Assembly (NCBI GenBank): GCA_044341565.1
Contig: JBIIRM010000003.1
Location: forward strand, 45,187 to 109,186
Direction: 5' to 3'
DNA length: 64,000 nucleotides
Origin: Minisyncoccia bacterium
GTDB lineage: Bacteria > Patescibacteriota > Minisyncoccia > SW-4-49-11
The notes below the pieces were generated by a model. The model saw only the letters and a program-made list of their open reading frames with translations. It was not told the DNA's origin and ran no database searches. The position numbers and the translations under genes were made by a program. Positions 1,189 through 60,983 of the stretch are shown in pieces (the first letter of the stretch is position 1; every line of letters starts with the position of its first letter).

Positions 1189-3066
1189 ATAAAAATTAAA
1201 TCTCTCCAAATCTCAAATATACTTAGCTTCCCCCATGTCGAAAATATAGAAGTTGCTCCAAAAATCATCTTTGATAAAGATTTAAGTATTCTTATTGGTC
1301 AAAATGGTTCAGGAAAATCAACAGTCCTAGAAATAATAAACTTTATTTTTAGGAGAGTGATTTTTATTCCATATAACAGAAATACAGATTTATATACTAA
1401 AAGAAACACAATTAATTCTAATGAAAAGAAGCAAATATTATCACAAATACATAATATTTCATACTATCATGGTTTTCGTCTTGATAGGAATTACGATTTT
1501 GAAAATAATGAACAAAAAATACGAGTTGTTGTTGAGTTGGATAATATTGATTTAGATAATATTGCACATCTTAAAAATAATACAGACCAGTTATCACCAA
1601 TAATTGATATGTATTCGGCTGAGCAAATGTTTGGAGATGGGGTAATACAAGAGGAGTATCAATTAGATATTATCTTAAATAGTACAAATAAAACCTATAT
1701 CGTCGAAACTAATCAAGATATTGGATATACTTATTTAAGAGCATATAATCTATATAAAGAGATGATAGAAATATATAATGAAGAGAACTTTGATGCTCCA
1801 ATCAAAAATTTAGCTGAATCATTTTCATTGATTGGGGGATACAGGAATTATAATTCTTATGCTACTCATGTTTCTCTTGGTGCTGGAGAAACCTCAATAA
1901 AACAAATTCAGGAGATTAGGGTTTCTGAGTCTTCAAGGAGTGCAAATTCTGTAGAAAATACTGAGCCTTCCATTTTTAGTTTAGTTCGATTGAAAATGGC
2001 TGGTCAATGTTTTGACTTAATAGGTACTAATGCAAATCAGCAAGAATGTGAAGCTACTGCAAATAATATGGATTTTATAAGAAGTATCAATGATAAACTC
2101 AAAATTATTAATCTTAGAGTAGAAATTAAGCTTCTTGATTATTCACGCTGGAATTTTACTTTTTCTTTTGTTGATATCAAAAGAGGTAGAGATATTTCTG
2201 ATATAAATGTTTTGAGTGCTGGGCAAAAGGCAATTATTCATTTAATATTTGAGGCGTATGGACGAGGTTATTTACAAGGTGGGTTAGTGATTATCGATGA
2301 GCCTGAAATACATTTACATTATCAGTTTCAAAGTGAATATATTCGTGTGATAGAGAAATTAAACAGCGAACAGGATTGTCAGTACATCTTAGTTACGCAT
2401 TCTGAATCTCTCATAAATTCGGAGACTATAGATAATGTTGTACGCTTATCTCTGGATGAAAAGGGTTATACTAAAGTTAATCAACCAGTCATTAAAACTG
2501 ATCAAAAATGGCTTGTTAAGATTTTAGATAATATGCGTTCTACTCACGCATTTTTTGGAAGTAAGATTTTATTGGTAGAAGGAGAAACAGATCGTTATTT
2601 TTTCCGTGAGGTTCTAGGAGAGATAGAGGAGAAGTTAGGGAAAGGATTAATTCAAGATATAACTATATTATCTGTTGATAGTAAAAATAATTTTACAGAG
2701 TGGAAAAACTTATTCAGTACCTTTGGGCTAAAAGCTTTTTGTATTGGTGATTTAGATTATGCATTTATTTTTTATCCTAAGGAGAAACAAAGTAAGATTA
2801 AAAACTTAAAACAAGTTACCGAGTTTTTAAATGATCATCCAGACGTTATTTCAAAGATAGAAGGAGAGTATCAAAATGGAACATATATTTTAAAAGAGGG
2901 GGATTTAGAGATGTATTTAAATATTAAAAAAGATCTTAGTAACGTAATATATTTTTGTCAGAACAATCTCAAAACATATCTTGCAGATAGTAAAAACTCC
3001 AAAGTACAAGAATTGAAAAGAATTATGGCTTGTATTACGGGTGAGAATGAAGCTGATTTGTGGTGA
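1189..3066 (+). CDS. OLD-family ATP-dependent endonuclease (ABC-type ATPase head + C-terminal Toprim)
   Basis: Walker A GQNGSGKST lies at 1303-1329, upstream of the GTG at 1357 called by the ORF track. The ABC signature is LSAGQK, Walker B is LVIIDEPEIHLH and the H-loop is ILVTHSE. The Toprim motifs are LLVEGETD and CIGDLD. The in-frame reading has no ATG/GTG/TTG between the TAA at 1177-1179 and the Walker A, so the placed start (ATA 1189, which would give MKIKSLQISNILSF) is provisional. Confidence 0.75.
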   Translation: MKIKSLQISNILSFPHVENIEVAPKIIFDKDLSILIGQNGSGKSTVLEIINFIFRRVIFIPYNRNTDLYTKRNTINSNEKKQILSQIHNISYYHGFRLDRNYDFENNEQKIRVVVELDNIDLDNIAHLKNNTDQLSPIIDMYSAEQMFGDGVIQEEYQLDIILNSTNKTYIVETNQDIGYTYLRAYNLYKEMIEIYNEENFDAPIKNLAESFSLIGGYRNYNSYATHVSLGAGETSIKQIQEIRVSESSRSANSVENTEPSIFSLVRLKMAGQCFDLIGTNANQQECEATANNMDFIRSINDKLKIINLRVEIKLLDYSRWNFTFSFVDIKRGRDISDINVLSAGQKAIIHLIFEAYGRGYLQGGLVIIDEPEIHLHYQFQSEYIRVIEKLNSEQDCQYILVTHSESLINSETIDNVVRLSLDEKGYTKVNQPVIKTDQKWLVKILDNMRSTHAFFGSKILLVEGETDRYFFREVLGEIEEKLGKGLIQDITILSVDSKNNFTEWKNLFSTFGLKAFCIGDLDYAFIFYPKEKQSKIKNLKQVTEFLNDHPDVISKIEGEYQNGTYILKEGDLEMYLNIKKDLSNVIYFCQNNLKTYLADSKNSKVQELKRIMACITGENEADLW

Positions 3067-5791: not shown

Positions 5792-6391
5792 ATGATTCGT
5801 CCTCTTGCAGCCCTTGGTGCTGCAATGCTTCTCACTACTGCTTGTGCCTCGGCTCCAACCAAGATATCTGCAGCGCCTGTTCAAACGCCTTCTTTTCTGA
5901 GGGCTGTGGGGACGGGTGAGAGCAATCGCTTCGGCAATCCTCTTATTCGAGTGGAGATGTACGCTGAGGGTCAGCTTCAAGGCTCTGTATTGGCTGTTTC
6001 TGGAAGAGCTCACACTCAAAACAGGAATAGGCATATTGCAGGGACAGAGGCTCCTTTGCCAGATGGTCTCTATACGGTGGATAATCAGGTTTATCCTTCC
6101 ACCAATCCACAGACTGCTGGTCAATTCCTCCCGATTTGGCCACAATTCCCAACTGGGCGTACTGAGCTTGGATTCCATCTGGATCCTAGCTACAATATTG
6201 ACCCAAAAGAGGATGGTACTCAAGGCTGTATTGGTTTCACCACTGCAGCAGATAGAGCCAAGCTATTCGGTTGGATTTCTAAGCATAAACCACGCTATCT
6301 CGAGGTGAATCTCTCATGGAAAATTCCTCCCGCCAAGTCGCTATCGGCCTTGGGGCTTTTGCCCTCTCGCTGGCATCAGTACCGGCATTGA
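5792..6391 (+). CDS. secreted protein, divergent YkuD-like (L,D-transpeptidase-fold) candidate
   Basis: ATG at 5792 with SD AAAAGG upstream, signal peptide MIRPLAALGAAMLLTTACASAP. Motif FHLD-x13-TQGCIG parallels the YkuD H-x(14-17)-[ST]HGC[IV] spacing with His replaced by Gln. GC is ~53% against the AT-rich backbone. Confidence 0.4.
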   Translation: MIRPLAALGAAMLLTTACASAPTKISAAPVQTPSFLRAVGTGESNRFGNPLIRVEMYAEGQLQGSVLAVSGRAHTQNRNRHIAGTEAPLPDGLYTVDNQVYPSTNPQTAGQFLPIWPQFPTGRTELGFHLDPSYNIDPKEDGTQGCIGFTTAADRAKLFGWISKHKPRYLEVNLSWKIPPAKSLSALGLLPSRWHQYRH

Positions 6392-6633
6392 GTCAAGTTG
6401 GTCCAGGTTATGTTCCGGTGATTCGGGCTTATGTCTGCGTCTGGGATGCATCTACCACACTCAATCTCCGCGCCGGCCCTAGCCGAGCTACCAGAGCAAT
6501 TGGGAGTCTCTGGCATGGTACTCCTGTTCAAATCATCAATCGCTTTGTGGCGAGCGATGGAATGTACTGGAATTTCGTCCGGGTCAATGGTGGCTCTGGT
6601 TATGTGCGTGATGATTATGTCTGTATCGGCTGA
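6316..6633 (+). CDS. secreted bacterial SH3 (SH3b)-domain protein
   Basis: Signal peptide MENSSRQVAIGLGAFALSLASVPALSQ, SD GAGGTGA 9 nt upstream. LNLRAGPSRATRAIGSLWHGTPVQIIN..DGMYWNFVRVNGGSGYVRDDYV matches the SH3_3 pattern. The ORF overlaps the previous one by 76 nt in another frame. Confidence 0.6.
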   Translation: MENSSRQVAIGLGAFALSLASVPALSQVGPGYVPVIRAYVCVWDASTTLNLRAGPSRATRAIGSLWHGTPVQIINRFVASDGMYWNFVRVNGGSGYVRDDYVCIG

Positions 6634-6663
6634 GGATTCTCCTTTTGCTACCGATTACAATAT

Positions 6664-6695
6664 CTCCCTGCCTTGCGTAGGGAGATTTTTATTTT
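6664..6695 (+). terminator. intrinsic terminator (CTCCCTGCCTTGCGTAGGGAG + TTTTTATTTT)
   Basis: Perfect 7-bp stem followed by a T-run, 30 nt after the stop of the SH3b gene. Confidence 0.7.
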
Positions 6696-6713
6696 GTAAG
6701 AAAAACTCCCCCC

Positions 6714-7031
6714 TCAAAGAGGGGGGAGAGAGAAAGCTTGGGGTTGAGATTTGTTGCAGGAGACTTGTCCTCCATCAAGGAGTCCAAGTACTAGACCTGT
6801 AGCTTTTGTATCGGGGTATTTCTTCAAATACCAAGAGGGAATTTTATTTCCCTCAAAAACCGCTGTGACCTCTACAGTTCCCCCTGTGGGGGTGTTGTAT
6901 TGGCAGTATCTTTGTTGCTCCCACTCAACGCGTGAGGAGCGAGTACCCACCCATGCATTGGGTGTGGCTGTGGCGGGGGAAGAAAAGGCTACAATGAGCA
7001 AAAGAGCCTTGAAAATGTGAGAAATGGACAT
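6714..7031 (-). CDS. small secreted hypothetical protein (105 aa)
   Basis: N-terminal signal-like MSISHIFKALLLIVAFSSPATA. The stop lies inside the minus-oriented hairpin 6706-6728 (CTCCCCCCTC..GAGGGGGGAG), which carries an A-run on plus = T-run on minus. Confidence 0.35.
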   Translation of the reverse strand: MSISHIFKALLLIVAFSSPATATPNAWVGTRSSRVEWEQQRYCQYNTPTGGTVEVTAVFEGNKIPSWYLKKYPDTKATGLVLGLLDGGQVSCNKSQPQAFSLPPL

Positions 7032-7100
7032 AATGTCAAAAATTGACGGTTCTGCTGGAATATAGCATATTTTAGCTATTTTGTAAAGGGGTTATAACAT

Positions 7101-7290
7101 AAAAGAAAAAGCCCCCCTCGTCGTAAATGGGATTTACTCCTGGGAAACCTCTCGGTGTTCCAACCTTCCTCCACGGGAAAACTCCCGTTTCCCCGACCCC
7201 TTTCCCAGACTATCTTGAGGTGGAATTTTTATACCGTTTAGAAATAACTGAGAATTGATAAAAAAAACCACCTCAGGATAGAGGTGGATA
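7101..7290 (+). repeat. ~160-190 bp intergenic repeat, copy 1 (second copy at 8752-8915)
   Basis: AAAGCCC(C/G)CCTCGTCGTAAATGGGATTTACTCCTGGGAAACCT(C/T)TCGGTGT(T/C)CCAACC ... CTTGAGGTG.A.TTTTTATAC.G.TTAGAAATAACT.AGAATTGATAA.AAAAAAC is shared by both copies. Copy 1 carries a ~30 nt insertion (TTCCTCCACGGGAAAACTCCCGTTTCCCCGA). Both copies sit in the 5' upstream region of minus-strand genes, in the same relative orientation. Confidence 0.75.
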
Positions 7291-7305
7291 TTGTGGGGAG
7301 GTGAG

Positions 7306-15423: not shown

Positions 15424-15492
15424 TAGGGGCGACCTTTCAGTCGCTCGTTTTTTATAACTATAATCTATTTCGGGAGACTGAAAGGTCGAATA
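15424..15492. repeat. hairpin/inverted-repeat element GTAGGGGCGACCTTTCAGTCGC ... GACTGAAAGGTCG (second family copy at 62383-62404)
   Basis: GCGACCTTTCAGTCGC hairpin + T-run at 15429-15453. The 13-bp partner GACTGAAAGGTCG lies 30 nt downstream, with a TATAAT hexamer (15459-15464) between them. The near-identical GTAGGGGCGACCTTACAGTCGCC recurs at 62383-62404. Confidence 0.6.
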
Positions 15493-15529
15493 GTATATGA
15501 TATAAAAATAATGTCCTTCAAGTTGAGGT

Positions 15530-15799
15530 TTGAGGATGCAAAGTTTGGCTGATTTTGCCCCACTAGAATTGGCGTGTTTATGTTTCATTAGATATGCTAC
15601 TGATATACATTACGACAATCTGAGGGAGATGATTCACTTTACTCTGAGGAGGGGATTAGAGGCTGGTATTGATATAAGATTTATTCAGAGAAATCCTATA
15701 TTTATAAAAGCCTGGGATCTTTTTATAGGCTATAAAGAGCCAAATAGTCAACACCCTAGTAATATCATTTATTTGTCTGGGAGACTTACTCCGTACTAA
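15530..15799 (+). CDS. hypothetical protein (89 aa)
   Basis: ORF with the probable true start at ATG 15536. Followed by hairpin CTCCTCC..GGAGGAG + T-run at ~15816-15850. Confidence 0.3.
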   Translation: MRMQSLADFAPLELACLCFIRYATDIHYDNLREMIHFTLRRGLEAGIDIRFIQRNPIFIKAWDLFIGYKEPNSQHPSNIIYLSGRLTPY

Positions 15800-15888
15800 G
15801 TTTTCAGTTCAATTTTTACTCCTCCCGTCGACTGATGAGGAGGAGATTTTCTTTTTAAGGAGAGGGAGATTTTAAAATCTCCTAAATA

Positions 15889-18252
15889 TTATTTTACCAA
15901 TTTACCGACTCGAAGGGCTTTTGTGAGGAACACTTCGTATGGGCTTAAATCCTGAGTTGAGGTGTATGTAAAACTTTCGATTTCCTTACCGAGTGATATG
16001 CTATTTTGTGATTTGTAGGCTCTCACGCCTTCTACTACGGATAATATATCTGTCATCAAATTATTCTCCTCTTCGGACAATTGCCAAGTTGTGTTGGTCT
16101 GTGGCCAAGCTGAATTATGTATACTCTTTGATTCGATATTGGAATATAATCCTTGATATAGCTCTTCGGTAATAAATGGCAAAATAGGAGCATATAATTT
16201 GAGTAGGCTCTCAATATAAATGTAGAGAGTATATTGGGCCGCTTTTCGTGAATTTTGCCCTTCAGGAGACTCGTCATATAGTCGATATTTGATCAGCTCA
16301 AGATAATAATCAGTGAATTTATTCCAGAATAATTGGTCTATTGCGGTTCGAGCTTTATAATATTCATATTGCTCAAAACTATGAGTAGCAATTTCAATCG
16401 TTTGATTGAGCTCGGATAATATCCATTTGTCTATTAATTCTAATTCTGGAGCTGTATCAGGTAAAGTGAAATTGACTAAATGCATTTCAGCAAATTTACC
16501 TGCATTGAAGAGTTTATTGACGGTCTTTTTCCCTTTTTTGATTTCCTCTTCATTATAGCGAATATTTTCACCAAGAGTGGTTCCTGTAGCCCAATATCTC
16601 ATGGCGTCAGCCCCATAGGTAGCGATTGTAGTCTCAGGTGGGGTGAAATTCCCTAATCTCTTAGAGATTTTGCGTCCTTGGGTATCGAGTCCATGACCTG
16701 ATATCATCACATCAGTGAAGGGGAGGGTATTATGATGAAAATAGGCTTTGGTGACTGTATAGAATAACCATGTTCTGATTATCTCAAAGGCTTGTGGCCG
16801 CAGGCTAGATGGGAAAAGTTTAGCGGCAATATCTGGGTTCTCCACAAGCTTAGCTCCGATTTCTGGTGACATAGAAGATGTCATCCAAGTATCCAGCACA
16901 TCTTGTTCTGCTATTAAGTCCTCAGCTTTATATCCGCGTGGAGTATATTCGGTTGGGTCTACTGGAAGCTCATCTTCTTGAGGGAGTATGATTTTTCCGG
17001 TTTTTCGATGATACCAGACAGGAATTGGTACTCCGTAATAGCGTTGGCGGGATATACACCAATCCCATTTGAGTGAGCTTACCCAATCTGAGTAAATAGA
17101 AAACATTCGCTTTGGATTCCAATTGAGTTTGCGACCTTGTTCTAATAATGCCTCTTTATGTTCTACAACATTGATAAACCATTGTTTGGTGATAATGAAT
17201 TCAATAGGGGTTCCTGATCTTTCGGATACTTGTATGGTATGAGTAATAGGAGTTTGTTTGATAAGAAGATTTTGAGTTTTCAGATCTTCTAATATAGTAT
17301 TGCGAAGTTTACTAATATGTGTACCAGCATAGGCTCCCGCAAGTTCCCCGAGAATTCCTCGTTCATTAAATATAAGGCGAGTTTCTAGATTATATTTTTT
17401 CCATTTAGCAATATCCTCACTATCTCCCCATGTACATACCATCATAAGTCCTGTTCCAAATTCTCGGTCTACTGTCTCATCGGTGAGTATAGGGATACTA
17501 TGTCCTGAAATAGGAGTAATAGCTTTTGTCCCAATCAGATGCTGATAACGCTTATCCTCGGGGTGGAAGAATAAGGCTACTGCAGCGGGGATAAGTTCGG
17601 GCCGGGTGGTCGCAATAATAAGGTCTTCTCCTGTGTCCTCGGACTTAAAAATAATATCATTAAGATGAGATTTTTGCTCTAAGTCTTCTAAATCGGTTTG
17701 AGCGAGGGCAGACTGAAAACTAATATCCCACATAATAGGTTCTTCTCTTTGGGATAGGAATCCTTTGCGATAAAGGTCAATAAATGACCATTGGGCAATT
17801 TTTTGGGAATGAGGATTAATAGATGAATATGTTTTTGACCAATCAACAGAAATACCAAGTAATGACCAGAGATTACGATATGTTTCTATCCCTTTTTGGG
17901 TTTCCTCGAGGCATAACTTTACGAATTCAGAGCGACTTATGGCGTCTTTATTCTTGATCTTATATTTTTTCTCCACATGGCGCTCAGTGGGCAGTCCATT
18001 ATCATCAAATCCCATTGGATAAAATACATTATAGCCTTGCATTCTCTTGAAGCGTACGACAAATTCAGCTTGAGAATAACTCATTATATGTCCAGGATGC
18101 AAATGATCAGCCGATACATAAGGTGGGGGAGTATCTACGGAGAATATAGGCCTATTTGATATCTCATCAAAAGCATAAATATTGTGCTTTGCCCAGAATT
18201 CACGCCAATAGGCTTCTCGTTCGCTAATTTCGTATTTGGAGGGAAGTGACAT
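15889..18252 (-). CDS. valS: class I aminoacyl-tRNA synthetase, valyl-tRNA synthetase-like (short form, 787 aa)
   Basis: HIGH-type motif HLHPGH, KMSKS-type KISKRLGN, and editing-domain motif ATTRPELIPAAVALFFHPEDKRYQHLIG resembling the ValRS TTRPET..HPED.RY..LIG signature. Valine versus leucine specificity is not certain. Confidence 0.7.
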   Translation of the reverse strand: MSLPSKYEISEREAYWREFWAKHNIYAFDEISNRPIFSVDTPPPYVSADHLHPGHIMSYSQAEFVVRFKRMQGYNVFYPMGFDDNGLPTERHVEKKYKIKNKDAISRSEFVKLCLEETQKGIETYRNLWSLLGISVDWSKTYSSINPHSQKIAQWSFIDLYRKGFLSQREEPIMWDISFQSALAQTDLEDLEQKSHLNDIIFKSEDTGEDLIIATTRPELIPAAVALFFHPEDKRYQHLIGTKAITPISGHSIPILTDETVDREFGTGLMMVCTWGDSEDIAKWKKYNLETRLIFNERGILGELAGAYAGTHISKLRNTILEDLKTQNLLIKQTPITHTIQVSERSGTPIEFIITKQWFINVVEHKEALLEQGRKLNWNPKRMFSIYSDWVSSLKWDWCISRQRYYGVPIPVWYHRKTGKIILPQEDELPVDPTEYTPRGYKAEDLIAEQDVLDTWMTSSMSPEIGAKLVENPDIAAKLFPSSLRPQAFEIIRTWLFYTVTKAYFHHNTLPFTDVMISGHGLDTQGRKISKRLGNFTPPETTIATYGADAMRYWATGTTLGENIRYNEEEIKKGKKTVNKLFNAGKFAEMHLVNFTLPDTAPELELIDKWILSELNQTIEIATHSFEQYEYYKARTAIDQLFWNKFTDYYLELIKYRLYDESPEGQNSRKAAQYTLYIYIESLLKLYAPILPFITEELYQGLYSNIESKSIHNSAWPQTNTTWQLSEEENNLMTDILSVVEGVRAYKSQNSISLGKEIESFTYTSTQDLSPYEVFLTKALRVGKLVK

Positions 18253-34605: not shown

Positions 34606-37029
34606 ATGATAATTGTACTCTATGTACTGCTGGTGCTATGGGTTATTGCTATAACATTTATTATAGCAACGGTTATTATACATCCATTTTGGGAAAAACG
34701 TCGTATTAATCGGGGACTTGCAATGACACAATATCAAATTATTGTACCTCGCAATATCCCTAATCCAGAAGCTAATATCAAAGATTTAATTAGTGTGATG
34801 GAACAGGTATATGCGGGGTTCTCTTATCTCAAATTAGAGAAATTAGTCAATCGTCTTAGATATGGGAGTCCTTATATTTCTCTTGAAATTGTAAGCCCTA
34901 CCGAGCGAGATGAAATTAATTTTTATATTGGAGTTCCAAAAGGGTATGAATCTATTTTTGAAAAACAAATTCATGGAGTATATCCAGAAGCTGAGCTGAA
35001 GCATATTACTGATTATAATGTATTAATCCCTGAAGGAGAAATTCGGGCCGGATACTTACAGCTTAAAAAACCCTATATTCTCCCTATTAGAACCTATAAA
35101 GAATTAGAAACTAATCCTTTGAATGTGATTACCTCGGCTCTGTCTAAAATTCAGGAAGATGAAAGTGCAGTGGTACAGATTTTAATACAAAGAGTATCGG
35201 ATGATTGGAGTAGTAGTGGTAAGAAGGTAGTGAAGAAAATGCAAAAAGGAGAAAGCTTCAAAAATGCATATAATGAAGTTTTTGGGGGGATTGATAAGCA
35301 ATTTTTGAAAACTTTAGGTTCTGCTACAAAGTCTAAATCAACGGAAGTCTCTGAGCCAAAAATGTTAAGTCCTCAAGAGTCTATTATGATGGAGAAAATT
35401 AGTCAAAAAACAGGTAAAATTGCCTATGCGACTAATATTAGATTATTAACTATATCTCGAGATAGCCAAAGAGCAGATGTATTATTTGATCAATTAGAGG
35501 GTGCTTTTTCTCAATTTGCCAATGGAGATCTGAATCAATTTAAAGTAATCAAATATCCTATAAAGAATATTAAACAATTTATTTATACCTTTATATTCCG
35601 ATTATTCTCAGTAAAAGAATCAATGTTATTAAATAGTGAGGAATTGACGAGTATATATCATATTCCTGCTGTGGGAGTGGAGACTCCAAAAGTAACTTGG
35701 ATTACTTCTAAAACCTCACATCCTCCAGTTGATTTGCCAAAGGAAGGATTATTATTAGGGAAGAATATATATCGTGGTGAAGAAATTGAGGTAAGAATTG
35801 CAGAAGAGGATAGGAGACGTCATATGTATCTTATTGGACAAACAGGAACAGGTAAAAGTTCTTTGATGAAAAAAATGATACAAGAAGATTTGCAAGCAGG
35901 ACATGGTCTTGCTCTATTAGATCCTAATGGAGATTTTGCCGTGGAAGTATTGGGTATGATTCCAGAGCATCGTATGCAAGATGTGATTTATTTTAATCCT
36001 GCTGATACTAATTATCCTATGGGACTTAATATTCTGGAAGCCCGCACACATGAGGAAAAAGATTTCTTGATACAAGAAATGATTTCTATTTTTTATAAAT
36101 TGGTATCTGATCCAAGTATGATAGGGCCAATATTTGAGCATAATATGCGAATGGCAATGTCAGCTTTAATGTCAGATGTCAATAATCCAAGAACTCTAGT
36201 AGAAATACCTCTTATGTTTACTGATGAGGCATTTAGGAGACAAGTATTATTAACAGTTGACGATCCTGTCATACGGCATTTTTGGGAAAAAGAATTTCCT
36301 GCTACACAAAAAGGTTCACAAGCAGGGGATACACTTGGGTATCTATTAAGTAAATTGGGCCGATTTATTGAAAATGAAATGGTGCGTAATATTATTGGGC
36401 AATCTCGTTCAGCCTTTGATTTTCAAGATATTATGAATTCAGGTAAAATTTTGATTGGTAATCTTTCTAAAGGAGGGTTGGGGGAACAAAATAGTAATTT
36501 ATTAGGTATGTTGCTGGTATCCAAATTACAAATGGCAGCCTTTAAGCGAAATGAAATTCCAGAAGAACAGAGAAGAGATTTTTATTTGTATTTAGATGAG
36601 TTTCAAAACTTTACCACAGATAGTATATCTACCATTCTCTCTGAGGCTCGCAAATATCGATTATGTCTCATATTGGCCCATCAATATATAGGACAATTAT
36701 CTGAGGGGATAAAGAATGCAGTATTTGGGAATGTGGGTACTGTGGTAAGTTTCCGTATTGGATCCGAGGATGCTGAAATTATTGCTCAGCGTATGCAACC
36801 ATATTATAGTGCTGAGGATTTAGTGTCAATTGACAATCTAAAGTCAGTAATAACCTTGATGATACAGGGTAAGACCAGTAAAGCTTTTAATATGGATATT
36901 ATATTCGCTGATAAGACGAATGCATCTTTACAACAACGGGTAATATTAGAGTCTCGCAATAAATATGCCAAGCCGGCAGCTGAAATACGAGCGGATATAT
37001 CGAGTCGTACGCAAAGTATGTTCGAATAG
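34606..37029 (+). CDS. FtsK/HerA-superfamily P-loop ATPase, VirB4/TraC- or VirD4/TraG-like (type IV secretion-type)
   Basis: N-terminal TM helix. Walker A IGQTGTGKSS around residue 412 followed by LALLDPNGDF, and Walker B FYLYLDEFQNF. 807 aa. Confidence 0.6.
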   Translation: MIIVLYVLLVLWVIAITFIIATVIIHPFWEKRRINRGLAMTQYQIIVPRNIPNPEANIKDLISVMEQVYAGFSYLKLEKLVNRLRYGSPYISLEIVSPTERDEINFYIGVPKGYESIFEKQIHGVYPEAELKHITDYNVLIPEGEIRAGYLQLKKPYILPIRTYKELETNPLNVITSALSKIQEDESAVVQILIQRVSDDWSSSGKKVVKKMQKGESFKNAYNEVFGGIDKQFLKTLGSATKSKSTEVSEPKMLSPQESIMMEKISQKTGKIAYATNIRLLTISRDSQRADVLFDQLEGAFSQFANGDLNQFKVIKYPIKNIKQFIYTFIFRLFSVKESMLLNSEELTSIYHIPAVGVETPKVTWITSKTSHPPVDLPKEGLLLGKNIYRGEEIEVRIAEEDRRRHMYLIGQTGTGKSSLMKKMIQEDLQAGHGLALLDPNGDFAVEVLGMIPEHRMQDVIYFNPADTNYPMGLNILEARTHEEKDFLIQEMISIFYKLVSDPSMIGPIFEHNMRMAMSALMSDVNNPRTLVEIPLMFTDEAFRRQVLLTVDDPVIRHFWEKEFPATQKGSQAGDTLGYLLSKLGRFIENEMVRNIIGQSRSAFDFQDIMNSGKILIGNLSKGGLGEQNSNLLGMLLVSKLQMAAFKRNEIPEEQRRDFYLYLDEFQNFTTDSISTILSEARKYRLCLILAHQYIGQLSEGIKNAVFGNVGTVVSFRIGSEDAEIIAQRMQPYYSAEDLVSIDNLKSVITLMIQGKTSKAFNMDIIFADKTNASLQQRVILESRNKYAKPAAEIRADISSRTQSMFE

Positions 37030-39687: not shown

Positions 39688-40134
39688 TTATTTACGGAAG
39701 ACAAAAAATTTATATCCAACAAAGCTCACAATCATTGATCCCCCTGTTCCTAATAGTTTACCAATAATTGCCGGATCTATCAATTGAGAGGGGATAAAAG
39801 ATAAGGATAATGGGAGGAGAATAGTTGCTGGCAATATTAATATGGTGAGTCTTAATATAGTAGTATTCACAATAAATCCTAAAGCATTTACCATGAGAAA
39901 ACTCCCAAATTCTCGAGGCTTGGTCTTTTTCTTATGCTGAAAGGTAATATATTTATTGGCAAAATAACTAAATATAATAGCAGTGATTACCGAGATAAGA
40001 TTAATATAGATAATTAGATGTGATTCATTAGAAATATTAAAGCTATATTTCAATAAAGCAAATACCCCGATATCAATCGAGGTATTCAGAATTCCAATAA
40101 TAGCAAAGAGTATTATTTCGCGATTTTTTACCAA
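39688..40134 (-). CDS. GtrA-family membrane protein
   Basis: 4-TM ~150 aa protein with a GtrA-like pattern. Confidence 0.55.
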   Translation of the reverse strand: MVKNREIILFAIIGILNTSIDIGVFALLKYSFNISNESHLIIYINLISVITAIIFSYFANKYITFQHKKKTKPREFGSFLMVNALGFIVNTTILRLTILILPATILLPLSLSFIPSQLIDPAIIGKLLGTGGSMIVSFVGYKFFVFRK

Positions 40135-40820
40135 GGCTGTATTTTTAGTGGTTCATCAGAATTTTCTTCTTCAGATTTAGTATCCTCTGAAGCTTCCTCA
40201 AGAAGGGGAGTATCATCTACAATTTCTTCATCAATATCAATATTAGGAGCAACTTCTGGAGTATCATTGAGATTAGACGGTGCATTCGTATTTACAATTC
40301 CAAGTGCTTGAGCTGATACTACATTTTCAATAGCTGCCCATTCACTTTTTTTAGTAAGTGGGGTAAGAATAGTCACCTCATCACCAGGAGATAATCTAAA
40401 ATAAGTTACAGAAGCAGTTAAGAGTCGATATAATTCATCTCCAACTTTTGCAAAATAACTATTATCTTGATATATAATATTCCCAATAGCACGACGACGT
40501 GGAGCTGGTCCAATTTGCTTATAAATAAATGCTCCATCAGCCGTAATAGTAAGTTTTAATTGATCTCCTTCAATCAATTTAGATTTACTCGCATAATTGG
40601 CAGGGACTGGATATTGTTTTTTAGTATCATCTACCATATATTCACCGGTAAATTCTCCCAATACAACTTTTTCTGCTTGCCCTACTACACTCACATAGGA
40701 TTGATTAGCTCCTGCAACTTGAGTCAGCATAGCACGAGCTTGATTGAGCCGAGCTTCTGCTTCTTTTACGATTTGTTCTAACTCAGCAATTTGCTGAGAT
40801 TTGTCCTCAGTATTTGACAT
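40128..40820 (-). CDS. hypothetical protein with N-terminal coiled coil and acidic C-terminus
   Basis: The ORF overlaps the downstream gene by 7 nt. Confidence 0.45.
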   Translation of the reverse strand: MSNTEDKSQQIAELEQIVKEAEARLNQARAMLTQVAGANQSYVSVVGQAEKVVLGEFTGEYMVDDTKKQYPVPANYASKSKLIEGDQLKLTITADGAFIYKQIGPAPRRRAIGNIIYQDNSYFAKVGDELYRLLTASVTYFRLSPGDEVTILTPLTKKSEWAAIENVVSAQALGIVNTNAPSNLNDTPEVAPNIDIDEEIVDDTPLLEEASEDTKSEEENSDEPLKIQPW

Positions 40821-41009: not shown

Positions 41010-41016
41010 CAATATT

Positions 41017-41218: not shown

Positions 41219-41223
41219 TAAAT

Positions 41224-41253
41224 AAAAAACTCCCAATTCTTTGGGAGTTTTTT
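41224..41253. terminator. bidirectional terminator AAAAAACTCCCAATTCTTTGGGAGTTTTTT
   Basis: It serves the 3' end of the minus-strand pilin-like gene. Confidence 0.7.
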
Positions 41254-41260
41254 ATTTACT

Positions 41261-43654
41261 CTATTGTGCTCGGCTCCCATCAGTATTAAGACGAGCTATA
41301 TATTGCGCCGCTACTCCTTGATATTGAGTAAAACTTCCTCCTACTACAAATTTACCATCATTTTGTGTTATTATACTATACACCATCTGATCAAATCCCG
41401 TGCCTATACTAAAACTATAGTCCCTACTCCCATTACTATTTAGTCGTATAATATAATTAGCTCCTACTCCTTGATATGTACCAAAATCTCCCCCTATTAT
41501 TAATTTCCCATCACTCTGCTGTATAATACCTCTTACTGGAACAATCAAAAGATTATTAAAGCCTGTACCTATAGCAAAAGTATTATCTGGAGACCCATCA
41601 CTGTTTAGTCGTATAATATAGTTAGCTCCTGCTCCCTGATAAGTAGTAAAAGTTCCACCCAATACTAATTTTCCATCGCTTTGCTGTATAACCGCGTATG
41701 GTACATTATTAAATCCCGTACCTATATTAAAAGTATTATCTTGAGATCCATTACTATTTAACCGTGTTATTCTATTTGTAGACACACCCTGATACGTACT
41801 AAATGACCCTCCAATAATAATTTTCCCATCACTTTGTTGGTAAACCTTGTTTACCGTACCATTAAATCCTGTACCTATATTAAAACTCGTATCTATACTC
41901 CCATCAGCATTTAACCTTATGATTCCATTTGCTGATACTCCTTGATAAGTGGTAAAAAAGCCACCTATAACTATTTTCCCATCACTTTGTTGTATAATGC
42001 TCATTACGCTACTATTAAATCCTGTACCTATATTAAAAGTATTGTCTCTACTTCCATCACTATTTAGTCGTATAATATAATTGGCTGCCACTCCTTGATA
42101 AGTAGTGAAATCTCCCCCTAGTACTATTTTACCATCACTTTGTTGTATAATACTCGCAGGAGGATTATTAAACCCTACCCCTATATTAAAGCTACTGTCT
42201 CTTGTTCCATCATTATTTAAGCGTGTTATTTTATTAACTGACACCCCTTGATAAGTGGTAAAAAAGCCACCTATAACTAATTTCCCATCACTTTGTTGTA
42301 TTATACTCTGAGTAGAACTATTAAACCCAGTAAAACCTAGAGGTGGGGTTTGAATTCCTCTGTTGACACAACGGAAACCAATACGGCTATTAAAATCAGA
42401 GGGAATATACGACATATTGAGCGAAAAAACTCCTGTAAAGCTATGATCAGACAACTGGCTACCACGAATGAAACCGTAAATGGTATTATTTCCAGGAGTC
42501 CCATCACTCCATACTGCTCCCACATTCTGGCTAGTATCCCAACTTGTATTACTTGCTCTATAATCATCATAATTAAGGATTCCATTAGTGGTTAACAGAG
42601 TAAATGGTCTCCAACCACCAAATCCTGGACTTGCTGTTATTGTTGGTTGATCAGCTCCAGTTATAGTGTTATTAGTCCATTCCCATACATTTCCACTTAA
42701 GTCCCATATTACTGATCCATTGGATAAAGTATGTGTTCTTTTTTGTATACTAGGAGATATGTCCCCTGTCCCGCTATAGGGAGCTGTATCAATTCCTGCT
42801 ACTAATCCTAAGGCTGGAGTATTATCACTATGTCCTCTCCATAATCCTCCCGACCCTACTGTTCCACCTGTCCAATTACTTGGCTGAGCCTCTATATTAC
42901 GGGCTATTGTCATCCATTCTTTATTCGTAATAAGACTTCCTCCAGCATTAATACAATATGTAGCTGCCGTTATCTGGCTTATCTTTACTATTGGATAACC
43001 ACTTGCTACACTAGCTACAGCCCTACCATTAGCTGATGTAGTTGCGGTTATAGTATTGTCTATGGTATTTGCCCCTTCGTCGGGTGTAGTTAGTCCTACT
43101 GTAGGAGAGGCTATTGCTACTGCCTTAGCCTCATATTTCATCACACAAAAGTCCTCAGTATTATAAAGACTATTTCCTGGGACTTTAATATATCCTGTTG
43201 GACACACAATATTGGTATAGATAGATTGTCCACGAGTAAAAATGGTATTATCAACTGAATTGACTCCACTAATGGTGAAGCGCCCTATATCATCGGTAAC
43301 AATAGAGAAACCACTTAAGACGGGATCAGTCCCATAAAAGGGTATGCTTTGAATATATGTAGGGACAAGAAAAGTAATATCAATACAACCTGCTCCAGGT
43401 GTCTTACAGATAGGAGTGGTGGAATTAGCAGTAAGGGCAGATATTTGTGGGTGATGAGATCCTGTCTTGAGAGCATATTGTTCTAATGCCTGATAAATAG
43501 TCAGGGCATCGGCTTTGCGTTCATTATCATTTGCTTCCGAAATAATTCTGCTGGGGTTTAGAGCATATAATACTGTGGCAAATAGAATAGCAAGAAGAGC
43601 AATGACGAGAAGTATCTCGAGTAGGGTAAAACCTTTTTTTGTAGTGTGTTTCAT
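41261..43654 (-). CDS. type IV pilin-like protein with FGE-sulfatase-like (C-type-lectin-fold) domain and 8 C-terminal delta-60/DUF5122-type beta-propeller repeats
   Basis: Prepilin-type N-terminus KKGFTLLEILLVIALLAIL. The mid region has NVWEWT ... GFRCV (FGE-sulfatase family signature). The C-terminus has ~48-aa tandem repeats FNIGTGFN..IIQQSDGKIVIGGFFTTYQGVS.N.IIRLN.DGS.D, which are also tandem at DNA level (~41300-42330). Confidence 0.85.
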   Translation of the reverse strand: MKHTTKKGFTLLEILLVIALLAILFATVLYALNPSRIISEANDNERKADALTIYQALEQYALKTGSHHPQISALTANSTTPICKTPGAGCIDITFLVPTYIQSIPFYGTDPVLSGFSIVTDDIGRFTISGVNSVDNTIFTRGQSIYTNIVCPTGYIKVPGNSLYNTEDFCVMKYEAKAVAIASPTVGLTTPDEGANTIDNTITATTSANGRAVASVASGYPIVKISQITAATYCINAGGSLITNKEWMTIARNIEAQPSNWTGGTVGSGGLWRGHSDNTPALGLVAGIDTAPYSGTGDISPSIQKRTHTLSNGSVIWDLSGNVWEWTNNTITGADQPTITASPGFGGWRPFTLLTTNGILNYDDYRASNTSWDTSQNVGAVWSDGTPGNNTIYGFIRGSQLSDHSFTGVFSLNMSYIPSDFNSRIGFRCVNRGIQTPPLGFTGFNSSTQSIIQQSDGKLVIGGFFTTYQGVSVNKITRLNNDGTRDSSFNIGVGFNNPPASIIQQSDGKIVLGGDFTTYQGVAANYIIRLNSDGSRDNTFNIGTGFNSSVMSIIQQSDGKIVIGGFFTTYQGVSANGIIRLNADGSIDTSFNIGTGFNGTVNKVYQQSDGKIIIGGSFSTYQGVSTNRITRLNSNGSQDNTFNIGTGFNNVPYAVIQQSDGKLVLGGTFTTYQGAGANYIIRLNSDGSPDNTFAIGTGFNNLLIVPVRGIIQQSDGKLIIGGDFGTYQGVGANYIIRLNSNGSRDYSFSIGTGFDQMVYSIITQNDGKFVVGGSFTQYQGVAAQYIARLNTDGSRAQ

Positions 43655-43760
43655 AAGGATATATTTTATTTCTAGATTAAGTTTAGTATAGCATAAAACT
43701 ATTATTGAGTGTATAGTGACTTTATGCTATACTTATACACATAAATCATTAACATAATAT

Positions 43761-45083
43761 ATGTTGGATATACTATATATAAAAGCAAATCGAGATTTTA
43801 TTATTGAAGTTGCCAAAAATAAAAAGGTTGGTATAGATATCGATAAGCTATTGTCATTATATGAAGAGCGTCAAAATCTTTTGCAACAAATAGAGCAATT
43901 GCGGGCAGATAAAAATGTTATTGCTGAGCAAATGAAGCAAATAGCTATTTTATCAGGAGATGAAAAATCTAAATTAATTGAACAAGGGAAAAGTATTAAA
44001 GATACTCTTGCAAATTTGGAAACTCAATATGAGAAAATAGATAGTGAGTATCAAAACATTCTTTATCAGGTACCTAATATATATTCCGAGGATACCCCTA
44101 TTGGACTTACTGAAGATGAGAATCACGTTGTGAAACAGGTGGGGGAGAAGCCTAATTTTAACTTTACTCCTTTGGAGCATTGGCAATTGGGTAAAGATTT
44201 GAATCTTATTGATACTGAGAAATCAGCTGAAGTCTCAGGTTCACGATTTGCTTATATTAAAGGAGATTTAGTATTATTACAATTTGCTTTAATACAATGG
44301 GTATTATCGCTGTTACAAGATACTAATTTGATTGATTCTATAGCAAAACAGGCTGGTTTAGAGGTGTCCAATAAAGCCTATACTCCCGTATTGCCTCCTG
44401 TATTGATGAAGCCAGAAGTGATGAAGCGTATGGGGAGATTGGATCCTATTGATGATAGGTATCAGACTACAGAGGATGGATTAATGTTAGTGGGGAGCGC
44501 TGAGCATACTTTAGGACCAATACATATAGATGAGATATTAGATTATAAGCAATTACCACTTCGATATGTCGGGTATTCTACAGCTTTTCGGCGTGAGGCA
44601 GGAACCTATGGTAAGGATATGAAGGGAATATTGCGATTACATCAATTTGATAAAATTGAAATTGAGGTATTTAGTAATAAAGATAATGGATTTGTTGAGC
44701 AGGAATTGATTCTTGCCATACAAGAATATTTGATGAAACAATTGGAATTACCATATCAAGTGGTACTCAAATGTTCAGGAGATATGGGAACTCCCGATGT
44801 GAGAGCCTATGATATTGAGACTTGGTTACCTGGGCAAAATCAATATAGAGAAACCCACACCTCAGATTATATGGGAGATTTTCAAGCTCGAAGATTACAA
44901 ACTCGATATAAAGATAGCGATGGGCAAAAACATTTCATACATATGAATGATGCCACCGTATTTGCAATTGGCCGAATATTAATTGCTATTATGGAAAATT
45001 ATCAGCAGGCTGATGGAAGTATTCGTATTCCACAAATCCTACAATCATATATTCATAAAGATAGTATTACCAATACAAAATAA
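43761..45083 (+). CDS. serS: seryl-tRNA synthetase
   Basis: N-terminal coiled-coil arm, class II motif 2 FRREAG, 440 aa. Confidence 0.95.
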   Translation: MLDILYIKANRDFIIEVAKNKKVGIDIDKLLSLYEERQNLLQQIEQLRADKNVIAEQMKQIAILSGDEKSKLIEQGKSIKDTLANLETQYEKIDSEYQNILYQVPNIYSEDTPIGLTEDENHVVKQVGEKPNFNFTPLEHWQLGKDLNLIDTEKSAEVSGSRFAYIKGDLVLLQFALIQWVLSLLQDTNLIDSIAKQAGLEVSNKAYTPVLPPVLMKPEVMKRMGRLDPIDDRYQTTEDGLMLVGSAEHTLGPIHIDEILDYKQLPLRYVGYSTAFRREAGTYGKDMKGILRLHQFDKIEIEVFSNKDNGFVEQELILAIQEYLMKQLELPYQVVLKCSGDMGTPDVRAYDIETWLPGQNQYRETHTSDYMGDFQARRLQTRYKDSDGQKHFIHMNDATVFAIGRILIAIMENYQQADGSIRIPQILQSYIHKDSITNTK

Positions 45084-56139: not shown

Positions 56140-57387
56140 ATGAAAAAAATGCAAAAAAAAGGATTTACATTATTAGAGGTATTACTGGTTATCGCTTTAA
56201 TAGGGATATTATTGACTATTATATTGGTAGTCCTCAATCCAAGGGAGCGTTTTGCTGTAGCTCGTAATGATGTTAGGAAATCTGATATACAAAAATTAGA
56301 AGGAGCTCTTACCCAATATCGCCTACAAGAGGGTTCATATCCAGCTGGACTTACTTCAACCTTACAAGAAATTTGTGACCCAGATATTAGTAATCCTTCC
56401 GTAAATTGTGGTAGCTATATTAACTTATCATCTCTTGTCCCAACTTATATTCAATCAATACCACAAGATCCCCAAGACACTGATTCAACAGGAGGTTCTG
56501 GATATCAAGTTGCGGTAGATGTGACACGAAATGTAGTAGCACTAAAAGCAATACAGGCAGAATCCTCAGCTACAATATCTATTAATAACCCCTTATCATC
56601 GGCTCTATCAAGTACAGCGGTGAATACACCCCTTGCAGCAAGTAACCCTCCCATAACTAGTCAAACTCCACCTTTAGTACCTAATACAGGAGATGTATCG
56701 CTACTGCTCCACGCGGATGGCAGTTTTGCAGACAGTAGTCCTAATAATTTTGTTCCGATGAGTACCGGAGGGAGTGGCGGGGGTGTGCAAATTAGCACTA
56801 CTCAGAGCAAGTTTGGTGGTTCAAGCCTATTCTTCCCAGATGTGGACATAAACAATGCCCCCTATCCCGCGTTGTCATATTGGACACCTGAGTCTGGTGG
56901 ATATAATTATTTCCCTGAGTTTAGCCTAGGAAATACTTATACAATTGAAGCATGGGTCTACGCAATTACACCCAGGGGAGGAATAGTTGAGAGGCTTGCT
57001 GGAGCTTTTTCACAGGAATATGGGTACTCTATGACGTTTGAAGGAACACGAATAAAATGTTACTTTTACGGAACCTTCGACGGTTCAGGATTTCAACAGT
57101 ATATCTTAGCTCCTTCTGCGTTTCCCACCTCAACCTGGGTTCATGTAGCAATGGTTCGTAGTGGAACAAACGGAGCCTTATACATTAACGGTGAGTCAGT
57201 TGGTACTATAAATAATCTTAACACTCCGCAAGGAAGTGTCAAGCCGGTTCTTATAGGTTCAAAAAGTGTTGGAAGCGGAGGAAATTATAACACTATCTTC
57301 TTCAACGGTTACATAGATGATCTACGTATCACTAAAGGAGTTGCCATATACACCTCTAACTTCACCCCACCTACTTCAGCTTTTTGA
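56140..57387 (+). CDS. type IV pilin-like protein with C-terminal LamG-like (concanavalin A-type lectin/glucanase) domain
   Basis: Prepilin N-terminus KKGFTLLEVLLVIALIGIL. C-terminal LLLHADGSF..KFGGSSLFF....FTIEAWVY....WVHVAMV..G.LYINGESVG....FNGYIDDLRI is the LamG_3 pattern. Confidence 0.8.
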   Translation: MKKMQKKGFTLLEVLLVIALIGILLTIILVVLNPRERFAVARNDVRKSDIQKLEGALTQYRLQEGSYPAGLTSTLQEICDPDISNPSVNCGSYINLSSLVPTYIQSIPQDPQDTDSTGGSGYQVAVDVTRNVVALKAIQAESSATISINNPLSSALSSTAVNTPLAASNPPITSQTPPLVPNTGDVSLLLHADGSFADSSPNNFVPMSTGGSGGGVQISTTQSKFGGSSLFFPDVDINNAPYPALSYWTPESGGYNYFPEFSLGNTYTIEAWVYAITPRGGIVERLAGAFSQEYGYSMTFEGTRIKCYFYGTFDGSGFQQYILAPSAFPTSTWVHVAMVRSGTNGALYINGESVGTINNLNTPQGSVKPVLIGSKSVGSGGNYNTIFFNGYIDDLRITKGVAIYTSNFTPPTSAF

Positions 57388-59717: not shown

Positions 59718-60983
59718 ATGCAAAATAAAAAAGAAAAAGGCTTTACATTATTGGAGATATTACTAGTAATAGCAGTAATAGGAATATTAGCAGCTATAGT
59801 ATTAATTGCTATTAATCCTAATAAACAAATAGTGCAAGCTCGTAATACTGCTAGGAAAGTTGATATTAATACATTAGAAAAAGCCTTAAGACAATATTCT
59901 ATAGATAATGCAGGTCAGCTCCCAAATGTAATACTGAATCAATATAAAGTAATTTGTAGACAAGGTATTACTGATCCTTCTTGTATTAATCTTGATGTTT
60001 TGGTACCCACATATATTGCGGCTATTCCTCGGGATACACAATCAAATACTATTAATACAGGATATTCGGTAGCAGTAAATCCCAATAATACGAATGTTTC
60101 TATTGTTGCAAATTTAGCTGAACAGTTTGTAGAAATTTCAATTAATAAATTTAATGAAGGAAGTGGCGCTTCGGCTTTATTAGCAGCTAATTCTTGTCAA
60201 TCTATTTTGTCTTCTGGATACTCAACTGGAAATGGAGTATATTGGATTAATTTACCTACTTCAGGTGCTACACAGATATATTGTCTTATGGATACATTAT
60301 TTGATGGTGGTGGCTGGATGTTGGCTATGAAAGCTACTCGCGGCACTACATTTAATTATGACTCTGCTCATTGGACTACAACAACAACATTAAATCCCAC
60401 CGATCTAACGAGAAACGATGCGGATGCTAAGTATCATACTATGAACTATTACCCCACCAGGGATTTAATGGCCGTGTGGCCAGATATCCCAACAGCTGGA
60501 GGAAGTATTCCTAATACTGGAAGCTGGACTTGGTTGGAAAAGAATTTTTACAATGGTGGTAATCGAACTACTCCTATAAATTTCTTTAGCACAATGGGAA
60601 CATATAATAATGGCGGAACACCTAGTACGGGTGATTATGGCGGCTATTTTATTAAAGACGCTAAGACATTTAGTGGCTGGGCAAATGGTGTGTTTTCGAG
60701 CCAGGTAGATATTAGATTTTATGGATTCAACTTTATCAATCATCCTAATTATGGATTTAATGGTAGAGTCCGTTGGGGATTTGGATGGAATGAGAATGGT
60801 GAGGGACTATATACTAGTCCTGCTACACTAGCCACCGGCTGGGCACCTGGGTCGGATGACGTAAGTGGTGGTATAGGTATGGCAAGTCAATTTGGTAGTT
60901 ATTCAGCTGGAGATATAATTAACTGCTGTCAAGATAATACAGGTATAAACCGATCCGCTAGAGTTGAATTATATATTAGATAA
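59718..60983 (+). CDS. type IV pilin-like protein fused to a fibrinogen-related (FReD-like) domain
   Basis: Prepilin N-terminus KEKGFTLLEILLVIAVIGIL. ANSCQSILSSGYSTGNGVYWINLPTSGATQIYCLMDTLFDGGGWMLAMK parallels the fibrinogen C-terminal-domain opening (C..I...G...SG.Y.I........VYCDM.TDGGGWTV). Later FReD landmarks are less clear. Confidence 0.6.
   Translation: MQNKKEKGFTLLEILLVIAVIGILAAIVLIAINPNKQIVQARNTARKVDINTLEKALRQYSIDNAGQLPNVILNQYKVICRQGITDPSCINLDVLVPTYIAAIPRDTQSNTINTGYSVAVNPNNTNVSIVANLAEQFVEISINKFNEGSGASALLAANSCQSILSSGYSTGNGVYWINLPTSGATQIYCLMDTLFDGGGWMLAMKATRGTTFNYDSAHWTTTTTLNPTDLTRNDADAKYHTMNYYPTRDLMAVWPDIPTAGGSIPNTGSWTWLEKNFYNGGNRTTPINFFSTMGTYNNGGTPSTGDYGGYFIKDAKTFSGWANGVFSSQVDIRFYGFNFINHPNYGFNGRVRWGFGWNENGEGLYTSPATLATGWAPGSDDVSGGIGMASQFGSYSAGDIINCCQDNTGINRSARVELYIR

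Follow-up and report, generated by a model that had tools for sequence, protein, structure and literature searches.

What does a protein do that begins as a type IV pilin and continues with two further, unrelated domains? The question is raised by one gene in a 64-kb stretch of DNA from a Parcubacteria-group bacterium of the candidate phyla radiation (CPR) (Minisyncoccia bacterium, contig JBIIRM010000003.1); this whole stretch of 64,000 nucleotides is called the window here. CPR bacteria, or Patescibacteria, are presumed to spend their lives on the surface of other cells, and of the organelles by which they might attach, type IV pili have the best support. The gene is a single open reading frame (ORF) on the minus strand; its length of 797 amino acids (aa) and its position, 41261..43654, are those of an initial annotation made from the DNA letters, and the mature product has a mass of ~84 kDa. 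We consider, with a probability of roughly two in three, that it encodes a trimodular minor type IV pilin, which most likely serves as a pilus-tip adhesin.

Architecture of the Protein

The protein is identical to P0121, the NCBI and JGI record of the exact 797-aa sequence, which forms a singleton cluster. It consists of a pilin module (aa 1-131 including the leader), a disordered linker (132-147), a domain of the C-type-lectin type (CLec, 148-434), and a β-propeller (440-797). The features of the gene, all on the minus strand, are as follows.

41261..43654, minus strand: whole ORF, trimodular type IV pilin-family protein
43631..43654, minus strand: 8-residue prepilin leader (read directly from the sequence; PF07963, TIGR02532)
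43262..43630, minus strand: pilin module, aa 9-131 (AlphaFold2 (AF2) model, family profile against solved pilins and GspG, alignment)
43214..43261, minus strand: flexible linker between pilin module and CLec, aa 132-147 (predicted local distance difference test, pLDDT, <50)
42353..43213, minus strand: CLec domain with the fold of C-type lectins and the formylglycine-generating enzyme (FGE), aa 148-434, 30 kDa (PF03781, AF2, Foldseek, cysteine positions, homologues bearing diversity-generating retroelements (DGRs))
42380..42472, minus strand: equivalent of a DGR variable region (VR), aa 395-425, IRGSQLSDHSFTGVFSLNMSYIPSDFNSR, just before GFRCV (orthologue divergence; VR homology)
42308..42352, minus strand: junction, aa 435-449 (orthologue alignment, DNA comparison, repeat anatomy)
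41264..42307, minus strand: seven delta-60 (DUF5122) units, seven-bladed β-propeller (hidden Markov models (HMMs), Tandem Repeats Finder, AF2, Foldseek)

All three parts score above the curated cut-offs in Pfam and NCBIfam profile searches. Together with the AF2 models, these matches sustain the three domain calls of the initial annotation, namely a prepilin N-terminus, an FGE/C-type-lectin fold, and a delta-60 propeller. The structure prediction that it had suggested as a check was run and gave both the propeller and the lectin fold, the former with seven blades and not with eight, while its middle region of ~50 kDa is actually the 13-kDa pilin module plus the linker and the 30-kDa CLec domain. 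A pilin module followed by a short linker and extra domains that are not specific to pili is the design of a modular pilin, and the 797-aa protein has this design; it is a new domain combination inside a known class.

The Pilin Module

The N-terminus reads MKHTTKKG, followed by FTLLEILLVIALLAILFATVLYAL, with the canonical G/FTLLE motif across the boundary. The prepilin methylation motif at aa 6-28 is matched by both PF07963 (23.4 bits, cut-off 21.2) and TIGR02532 (25 bits, cut-off 16.3), and the class III signal peptide that had been read from the sequence is a canonical one. In the AF2 model of aa 1-449 (93 homologues as input; mean pLDDT 83.5), a pilin lollipop is followed by the linker and a globular domain. 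The lollipop has a hydrophobic α1N segment, an α1 helix at aa 11-64, a small β-sheet with strands between 79 and 130, and a Cys83-Cys90 pair. In a search with the family profile, solved type IV pilins and GspG gave E values of 1e-10 to 1e-9 over the whole pilin module, the match to GspG 5wda (E 1.3e-9) covering positions 12-125.

The same carrier module, with 40% identity, an invariant LVPTYI..IP motif, and the conserved Cys pair, is common to three pilins of the window. The other two are solitary genes amid housekeeping genes:

56140..57387, plus strand: modular pilin with a Laminin_G_3/concanavalin-like head (73 bits)
59718..60983, plus strand: modular pilin with a fibrinogen-like GGGWT head (NCBIfam YCDxxxxGGGW domain, 41.9 bits, cut-off 30)

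The fibrinogen-like head was identified through NCBIfam, a sequence search of the PDB having given no match for it. The comparison shows that this genome employs one carrier module repeatedly, also in combination with LamG and fibrinogen-like heads.

The Middle Domain and Its Relation to DGRs

The middle domain contains the NVWEWT and GFRCV motifs, matches the FGE-sulfatase family PF03781 with 35.4 bits (cut-off 23.3), and is modelled mostly with pLDDT >85. In Foldseek its best match is TaqVP, followed by true FGEs, CalU17, Mtd, and EgtB, with a probability of 1.0 for TaqVP, FGE (6muj, 2q17, 1y1e), Mtd, and EgtB; the FGE mutant entries 2aft and 2afy are also among the matches. The proposed FGE/C-type-lectin fold is thereby confirmed. 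The copper-binding cysteines of FGE, which in the human enzyme are Cys336 and Cys341, form a pair flanked by the RGG and GFRC motifs. The cysteines of the entire 797-aa protein are at positions 83, 90, 151, 170, 234, and 429, with none between the last two. The catalytic copper-binding pair is therefore absent, and the CLec domain is not an FGE enzyme. It is a non-enzymatic binder scaffold.

Because TaqVP, a DGR variable protein, was the top structural match, template repeats (TRs) were searched for. The CLec domain proved to be homologous to DGR variable proteins: the VRs of loci L011, L019, L020, L029, and L030 encode AFLRGGxW...GFRC, a sequence that can be aligned with aa 393-430. The branch of CLec domains to which the middle domain belongs is the one that DGRs use, a relation that the initial annotation had missed. 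In many distant family members the final 113-126 nt of the gene are present twice, and the mismatches between the copies fall almost only at the adenines of one of them:

L011: 18 of 18 mismatches at adenines
L019: 17 of 18
L020: 16 of 16
L030: 8 of 8
L012: 16 of 16
L029: 12 of 13

Full DGR cassettes, with the target, an Avd-like ORF, the TR, and a reverse transcriptase (RT) with YMDDF, are present in L020 (9929..12803) and L029 (9938..13133), and the DGR target ORFs of L020, L029, and L083 begin with a prepilin-type N-terminus. A crude survey added further DGR-bearing CLec homologues (L047, L078, L080, the pilin-fused L083, and L088), and complete or partial cassettes with CLec-homologous targets are present in L011, L012/L046, L019, L020, L029, L030, L047, L078, L080, L083, and L088. 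Judged from these sequences, type IV pilins diversified by DGRs exist in Paceibacterota. DGR targets of CPR bacteria were described as being typically without recognizable domains (Roux et al. 2021, PMC8144416), and a 2024 survey found a GspG-type pilin domain among the rare VR-bearing domains (PMC11661182).

In the window protein, no segment has diverged as much as the VR-equivalent at aa 395-425. It is only 28-32% identical to the orthologues of a sister species (see below), with indels, compared to 86% for the pilin module, 83-86% for the first half of the CLec domain, and 65-66% for CLec aa 281-394. The differences are indels and positions that are not Asn/adenine-templated, and seven strain variants of the sister species do not differ in this stretch. 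The 64-kb window yielded no TR, the longest chance match to the CLec domain being 20 nt, and no RT among its ORFs of at least 250 aa scanned against Pfam (ORFs 25909-26712 and 31525-32334 were left unscanned); neither was found within 10 kb on either side of the orthologue in the sister genome L006. Of the marks of a DGR variable protein, the VR homology is present, whereas a cognate TR and an adjacent RT/Avd were not found in the window. The VR-equivalent is probably an orphan, a binding loop once of the DGR type in which ordinary mutation is now the source of change.

The likeness to TaqVP of Thermus (5vf4) and Mtd of a Bordetella phage (PDB entries beginning 1yu) thus lies in the fold and in the C-terminal ...RGGxW...GFRC, the scaffold on which the variable residues sit, and extends to the pilin-fused homologues in Paceibacterota, which are genuine DGR targets. 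The window protein differs from these in that no template repeat and, among the ORFs scanned, no RT was found within 64 kb, in the drift of its VR-equivalent by indels and at positions that are not adenine-templated, and in the internal location of this stretch, which is followed by the propeller instead of lying at the C-terminus.

The Propeller and Its Repeats

The C-terminal part matches PF17164 (DUF5122) with 317.7 bits and TIGR02608 (delta-60) with 160.8 bits (cut-off 76.5), in seven matched stretches. The AF2 model of aa 435-797 (pLDDT 95.1, predicted template modelling score 0.91) has seven four-stranded blades, and Foldseek relates it to seven-bladed CylK, the BT4663 glycan sensor, PLL fucose lectins, and WD40 domains. 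The delta-60 propeller of the initial annotation is well borne out by these scores, its eight blades are not; on the strength of the model, the repeats are confidently predicted to fold as a closed seven-bladed β-propeller. Tandem Repeats Finder gives a period of 153 nt with 74-77% matches. When the units are delimited by anchoring on the Q(Q/N)(S/N)DGK motif, seven are obtained, with a standard length of 51 aa (153 nt), in place of the eight copies of 48 aa that had been counted:

42155-42307, minus strand: unit 1
42002-42154, minus strand: unit 2
41849-42001, minus strand: unit 3
41696-41848, minus strand: unit 4
41531-41695, minus strand: unit 5, 55 aa
41378-41530, minus strand: unit 6
41264-41377, minus strand: unit 7, truncated, 38 aa

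The units had also been described as near-identical in DNA. Their pairwise identity is 54-84% (mean about 70-74%), and the longest exact run that two of them have in common is 34 nt. At the junction with the CLec domain, the ancestral C-terminus ...QTPPL ends at aa 439, and the following GFTGFNSSTQ resembles the tail of a repeat unit (NIGTGFN...). Located just before unit 1, this segment may supply the outer strand that closes the truncated last blade. The blade-by-blade comparison with other delta-60 pilins revealed no positional orthology, because all blades sit near a common consensus. A recent copy of the propeller from the P0122/P0213 pilin family was considered and rejected, the repeat DNA being only 65-68% identical.

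Propeller Loss in a Sister Species

In a sister species (loci L001-L006; ENA, Logan, and NCBI assemblies), an orthologue of 442-444 aa occupies the same slot, in the order serS, pilin, 230-aa protein, gtrA, and dnaX. The flanking proteins are 86-96% identical between the two species, and the pilin body 76%. The sister orthologues end with ...QTPPL and a stop, exactly at the domain boundary where the window protein goes on with GFTGFN, because a 2-nt TA insertion creates the stop codon. The sister-species DNA at this point is CCACCTTTATAGGTTTC, and PPLGFTGFN returns when one TA is dropped. A relic of the array follows, out of frame with the preceding ORF: a single intact blade that reads GFTGFNGTVR(G/S)(V/I)VQQSDGKFVIGGQFTQYQGVAAINIARLNTDGSRAQ and then a stop. 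It combines the head of the array with the tail, C-terminus, and stop of unit 7, and is 76% identical to unit 7, compared to 55-66% for the other units. The DNA at 41199-41257, which runs from just past the stop into the terminator given below, is 98% identical in the sister species.

41219..41258, minus strand: hairpin terminator directly 3' of the TAG stop (41261-41263)

Units 1-6 are no closer to unit 7 or to the relic than to blades of unrelated proteins, and the divergence within the array is larger than that of the flanking DNA between the two species, which makes a recent expansion from one unit to seven unlikely. The parsimonious interpretation of the sequences is that the sister lineage would have deleted six units by inter-blade recombination (7 to 1) and acquired a frameshift. 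The collapsed state is identical and fixed in all six sister-species assemblies, which come from three independent sources, and the propeller is an accessory module. A programmed frameshift at the TA insertion was also considered and, by inspection, rejected: a canonical slippery heptamer is lacking, and one blade is not enough for a propeller.

The sister locus has two other peculiarities. Between the relic blade and the terminator there is a GC-rich insert of ~270 nt (L001 7475..7741, equivalent to L006 about 11480..11745), which the window lacks. Within the insert, a stretch of 42 nt occurs twice in direct orientation (L006 11563-11604 and 11697-11738, the copies being 81% identical), with hairpins of the form GGGGAAC...GTTCCCC. 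In short parts the insert resembles window positions 41065-41104 and 40995-41020 near the 3' end of tRNA-Leu, and it has no Rfam match; it could be a small mobile or structured element. In addition, a pilin-like gene of 573-574 aa with a weak N_methyl match (L001 10831..12555, minus strand; same position in L002-L004) sits between dnaX and a class I W/Y-type tRNA synthetase gene (PF00579), two genes that abut in the window (38059/38066). Pilin gene content thus differs between close relatives.

Family and Distribution

Proteins composed of a pilin module and a CLec domain form a family of 1,670 matches, mostly of 400-480 aa and largely from CPR bacteria; none of the top 120 has a propeller. 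Pilins with delta-60 repeats but no CLec domain also exist (P0122, P0124, P0152, P0157, and others). Among the proteins surveyed, 30 genome loci, and 58 metagenome loci, the triple architecture occurs in P0121 only, which does not prove it unique. Two wider searches are uninformative on this point. The top 150 matches of the full protein among 1.84 billion representatives are all giant multi-propeller delta-60 proteins that match aa 434-797 only, and in a word-indexed search for aa 300-560 no protein longer than 462 aa came up, P0121 itself being missed. The high-coverage matches to aa 300-560 (P0447, P0377, P0370) are plain propellers.

A related genome contains, directly after the gene for ribosomal protein S9, a pilin of 902-903 aa with about 14 delta-60 repeats, probably two propellers (L094 8001..10709; P0213). 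P0213 is probably a paralogue in the same genome as the trimodular pilin. A nearby pilin (L094 2324..3643) has an ALK_LTK glycine-rich domain.

Proposed Role and Comparison with Known Systems

If the protein follows established type IV pilin biology, prepilin peptidase would remove the 8-residue leader after Gly8 and methylate Phe9, and the hydrophobic α1 helix would keep the subunit in the membrane. A type IV pilus machinery encoded outside the window would then incorporate it into the filament, where the 70 kDa of extra domains would most likely restrict it to the tip. There, the CLec domain and the propeller may both act as heads that bind glycans or proteins of a surface. The pilus would in this way be fastened to a partner cell or a surface, and retraction would pull the cell into contact.

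A number of points weigh against this proposal. The gene is solitary, located between serS and tRNA-Leu/dnaX, and no PilB, PilC, PilD, or PilM is present among the annotated ORFs of the window. Class III signal peptides are not restricted to filament-forming proteins and can be used by other surface proteins as well. For the trimodular pilin, its processing, its polymerisation, its place at the tip, and its binding of a ligand are all inferred.

The class of modular pilins goes back to Raynaud et al. (2021), with Streptococcus sanguinis PilB (vWA module) and PilC (lectin module) as examples (PMC8179133). Like these, the window protein has a class III signal peptide, a small pilin module, a short linker, and bulky ligand-binding modules; unlike them, it has two unrelated heads in series, CLec and a seven-bladed propeller, which are known here from sequence and models. 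Many examples in that survey are from CPR phyla. Its InterPro list (Dataset S1) contains eight proteins with a pilin and IPR005532 (SUMF/FGE) and four with a pilin and two copies of IPR013431; IPR005532 occurs once only, and a pilin combining CLec and propeller is not in the list (PMC8179133).

The host-adhesion idea of the initial annotation has an experimental precedent in a CPR bacterium, where a propeller-bearing minor pilin is needed for host binding: deletion of PilX2 in Nanosynbacter lyticus TM7x (Saccharibacteria) halves the binding (PMC11623550). PilX2 and the window protein both have a C-terminal seven-bladed propeller with likeness to PLL-type lectins, which are among the Foldseek matches here. 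The propeller of PilX2 is made of RCC1 repeats, however, and that of the window protein of delta-60 repeats. PilX2 also has no predicted PilD signal peptide and no CLec domain and sits in a pilus locus, whereas the window gene has a canonical signal peptide and a CLec domain and is solitary. A functional likeness exists to PilY1/PilC of Pseudomonas and Neisseria, where the tip of the type IV pilus presents a propeller along with binding modules that vary (see PMC8179133 and PMC11623550). PilY1 docks on minor pilins without being a pilin itself, and its propeller is of another family (IPR008707). Since the window protein has no Pfam match to this type (IPR008707/PF05567) at E <= 1, the analogy is functional only.

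Alternative Explanations

Two alternatives concern the middle domain. It could be a catalytically active oxidase of the FGE/EgtB type displayed outside the cell, a reading to which the PF03781 match, the structural likeness to FGE and EgtB, and weak NCBIfam matches to SenA and EgtB lend some color. The latter are far below the cut-offs, however (SenA 17.6 vs 420 bits, EgtB 12.4 vs 360 bits), the FGE copper-binding pair has no counterpart, there is no DinB domain as in EgtB, and the nearest fold match is a non-enzymatic DGR binder. The oxidase is already largely refuted, and we regard it as almost out of the question. The domain could instead be an active DGR target, with an RT and a template repeat elsewhere in the genome hypermutating aa 395-425 in trans to give a hypervariable adhesin. 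The homology to bona fide VRs, TaqVP as best structural match, and the exceptional divergence of the VR-equivalent between orthologues speak in favor of such a system. Against it stand the kind of the differences between the orthologues (indels and positions without Asn/adenine templating), the invariance of the stretch among the strain variants of the sister species, and the failure to find a template longer than 20 nt or, in the ORFs scanned, an RT in the window, or either near the sister orthologue. Moreover, 1.1 kb of coding sequence follows the VR-equivalent, while the VR is at the 3' end of the gene in the DGR targets examined. An active DGR is accordingly very improbable, and the orphan loop remains the preferred interpretation of this segment.

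The other two concern the repeats and the fate of the whole protein. The initial annotation held the repeats to be prone to rearrangement and their number to be a possible means of phase or antigenic variation. The former is right insofar as inter-repeat recombination has remodelled the gene, as an evolutionary loss; for variation by slippage we find no evidence. A contingency locus, in which frequent slipped-strand or recombinational changes of the blade number switch or vary the adhesin, would agree with the exact 7-to-1 collapse in the sister species, in which the head of the array has become fused with the last unit, and with the exact runs of 24-34 nt that some units have in common. Such loci have near-identical DNA repeats that allow frequent slippage, and the 54-84% identity of the units is too low for this. 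The collapse is fixed in the sister species and accompanied by the inactivating TA insertion, no intermediate blade numbers occur among about 90 related loci, and phase variation is therefore not supported. In addition, a propeller tolerates few blade numbers, and within species no variation in copy number was seen: both contigs on record for the window species have the same protein, and the sister species is fixed for the one-unit relic. We thus hold a contingency locus to be quite unlikely. Somewhat less so, though still improbable, is a binding protein anchored at the cell surface, for which the prepilin-type N-terminus would serve only in export and in attachment to the membrane, and which would not be polymerised. 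It would resemble the sugar-binding proteins of archaea with class III signal peptides, the mature size of 84 kDa is far above that of filament-body pilins, no pilus operon is near the solitary gene, and many such large pilin-like genes are scattered amid housekeeping genes in these genomes. A complete GspG-like globular pilin module has been kept, however, at 86% identity to the orthologue, solved modular pilins of similar design do go into pili (PMC8179133), and TM7x PilX2 works together with its major pilin (PMC11623550). These observations favor a minor pilin over a merely tethered protein.

Neighboring Genes and Other Features of the Window

Upstream of the gene, in the divergent intergenic region that it has in common with serS, lies a putative promoter, which is a consensus match only and no evidence of function:

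43754..43783, minus strand: weak sigma-70-like promoter match, ~100 nt upstream of the start codon (9/12 consensus matches)

The 230-aa protein of the locus (40128..40820, minus strand) has no Pfam match, yet no neighbor is better conserved (96% identity to its counterpart in the sister species). The N-terminus of this protein is a coiled coil and its tail is acidic; its gene overlaps the start of the GtrA-family gene.

The region 6000..16000 has a G+C content of 0.39-0.45, compared to about 0.33 elsewhere, and may be a horizontally acquired island. It includes carotenoid-type genes, namely an amine-oxidase/phytoene-desaturase-like gene (10614-12128), a UbiA prenyltransferase gene (12950-13789), and a Caroten_synth gene (13823-14587). 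Two tRNAs at 15198-15368 form a border of this high-G+C carotenoid stretch, which is not a usual feature of CPR genomes. The two are Rfam matches (15198..15261 and 15268..15368, plus strand; 53 and 45 bits) that ARAGORN does not report, and the second, 101 nt long, may carry an intron or an unusual arm.

At 72..3066, a Schlafen group 3-like helicase (285 bits) adjoins an OLD-family ATPase/TOPRIM nuclease (AAA_15 and OLD-like TOPRIM), in what looks like an anti-phage defence gene pair. An 807-aa ORF at 34606..37029 (plus strand) has coupling-protein domains of the TrwB/TraG-D/VirD4 type and is possibly part of the type IV secretion/conjugation-like system of Patescibacteria described in PMC12102498.

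Implications

The domain combination is an expected extension of the modular-pilin concept and introduces no new principle. To our knowledge, adhesins of CPR bacteria are known for oral Saccharibacteria only. The window protein adds a concrete candidate for the far less studied Parcubacteria group, with two expressible and confidently modelled binding domains, and it ties a family of FGE-like pilins to the variable proteins of DGRs. The propeller-plus and propeller-minus orthologues of the two sister species form a natural pair that can be used to test the contribution of each module.

More tentatively, and with considerable doubt on our part, the gene may give a momentary view of the way in which CPR bacteria remodel their pilus-tip adhesins. 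One carrier module would be fitted with interchangeable heads, the CLec head would come from a lineage hypermutated by DGRs in other Paceibacterota, the DGR would here have been lost, and specificity would vary instead through ordinary divergence of the orphan loop and through gain and loss of the propeller by inter-blade recombination. If DGR-diversified pilins were a general route by which CPR bacteria retarget their attachment, the abundant DGRs and the type IV pili of these organisms would be linked in one host-range mechanism.

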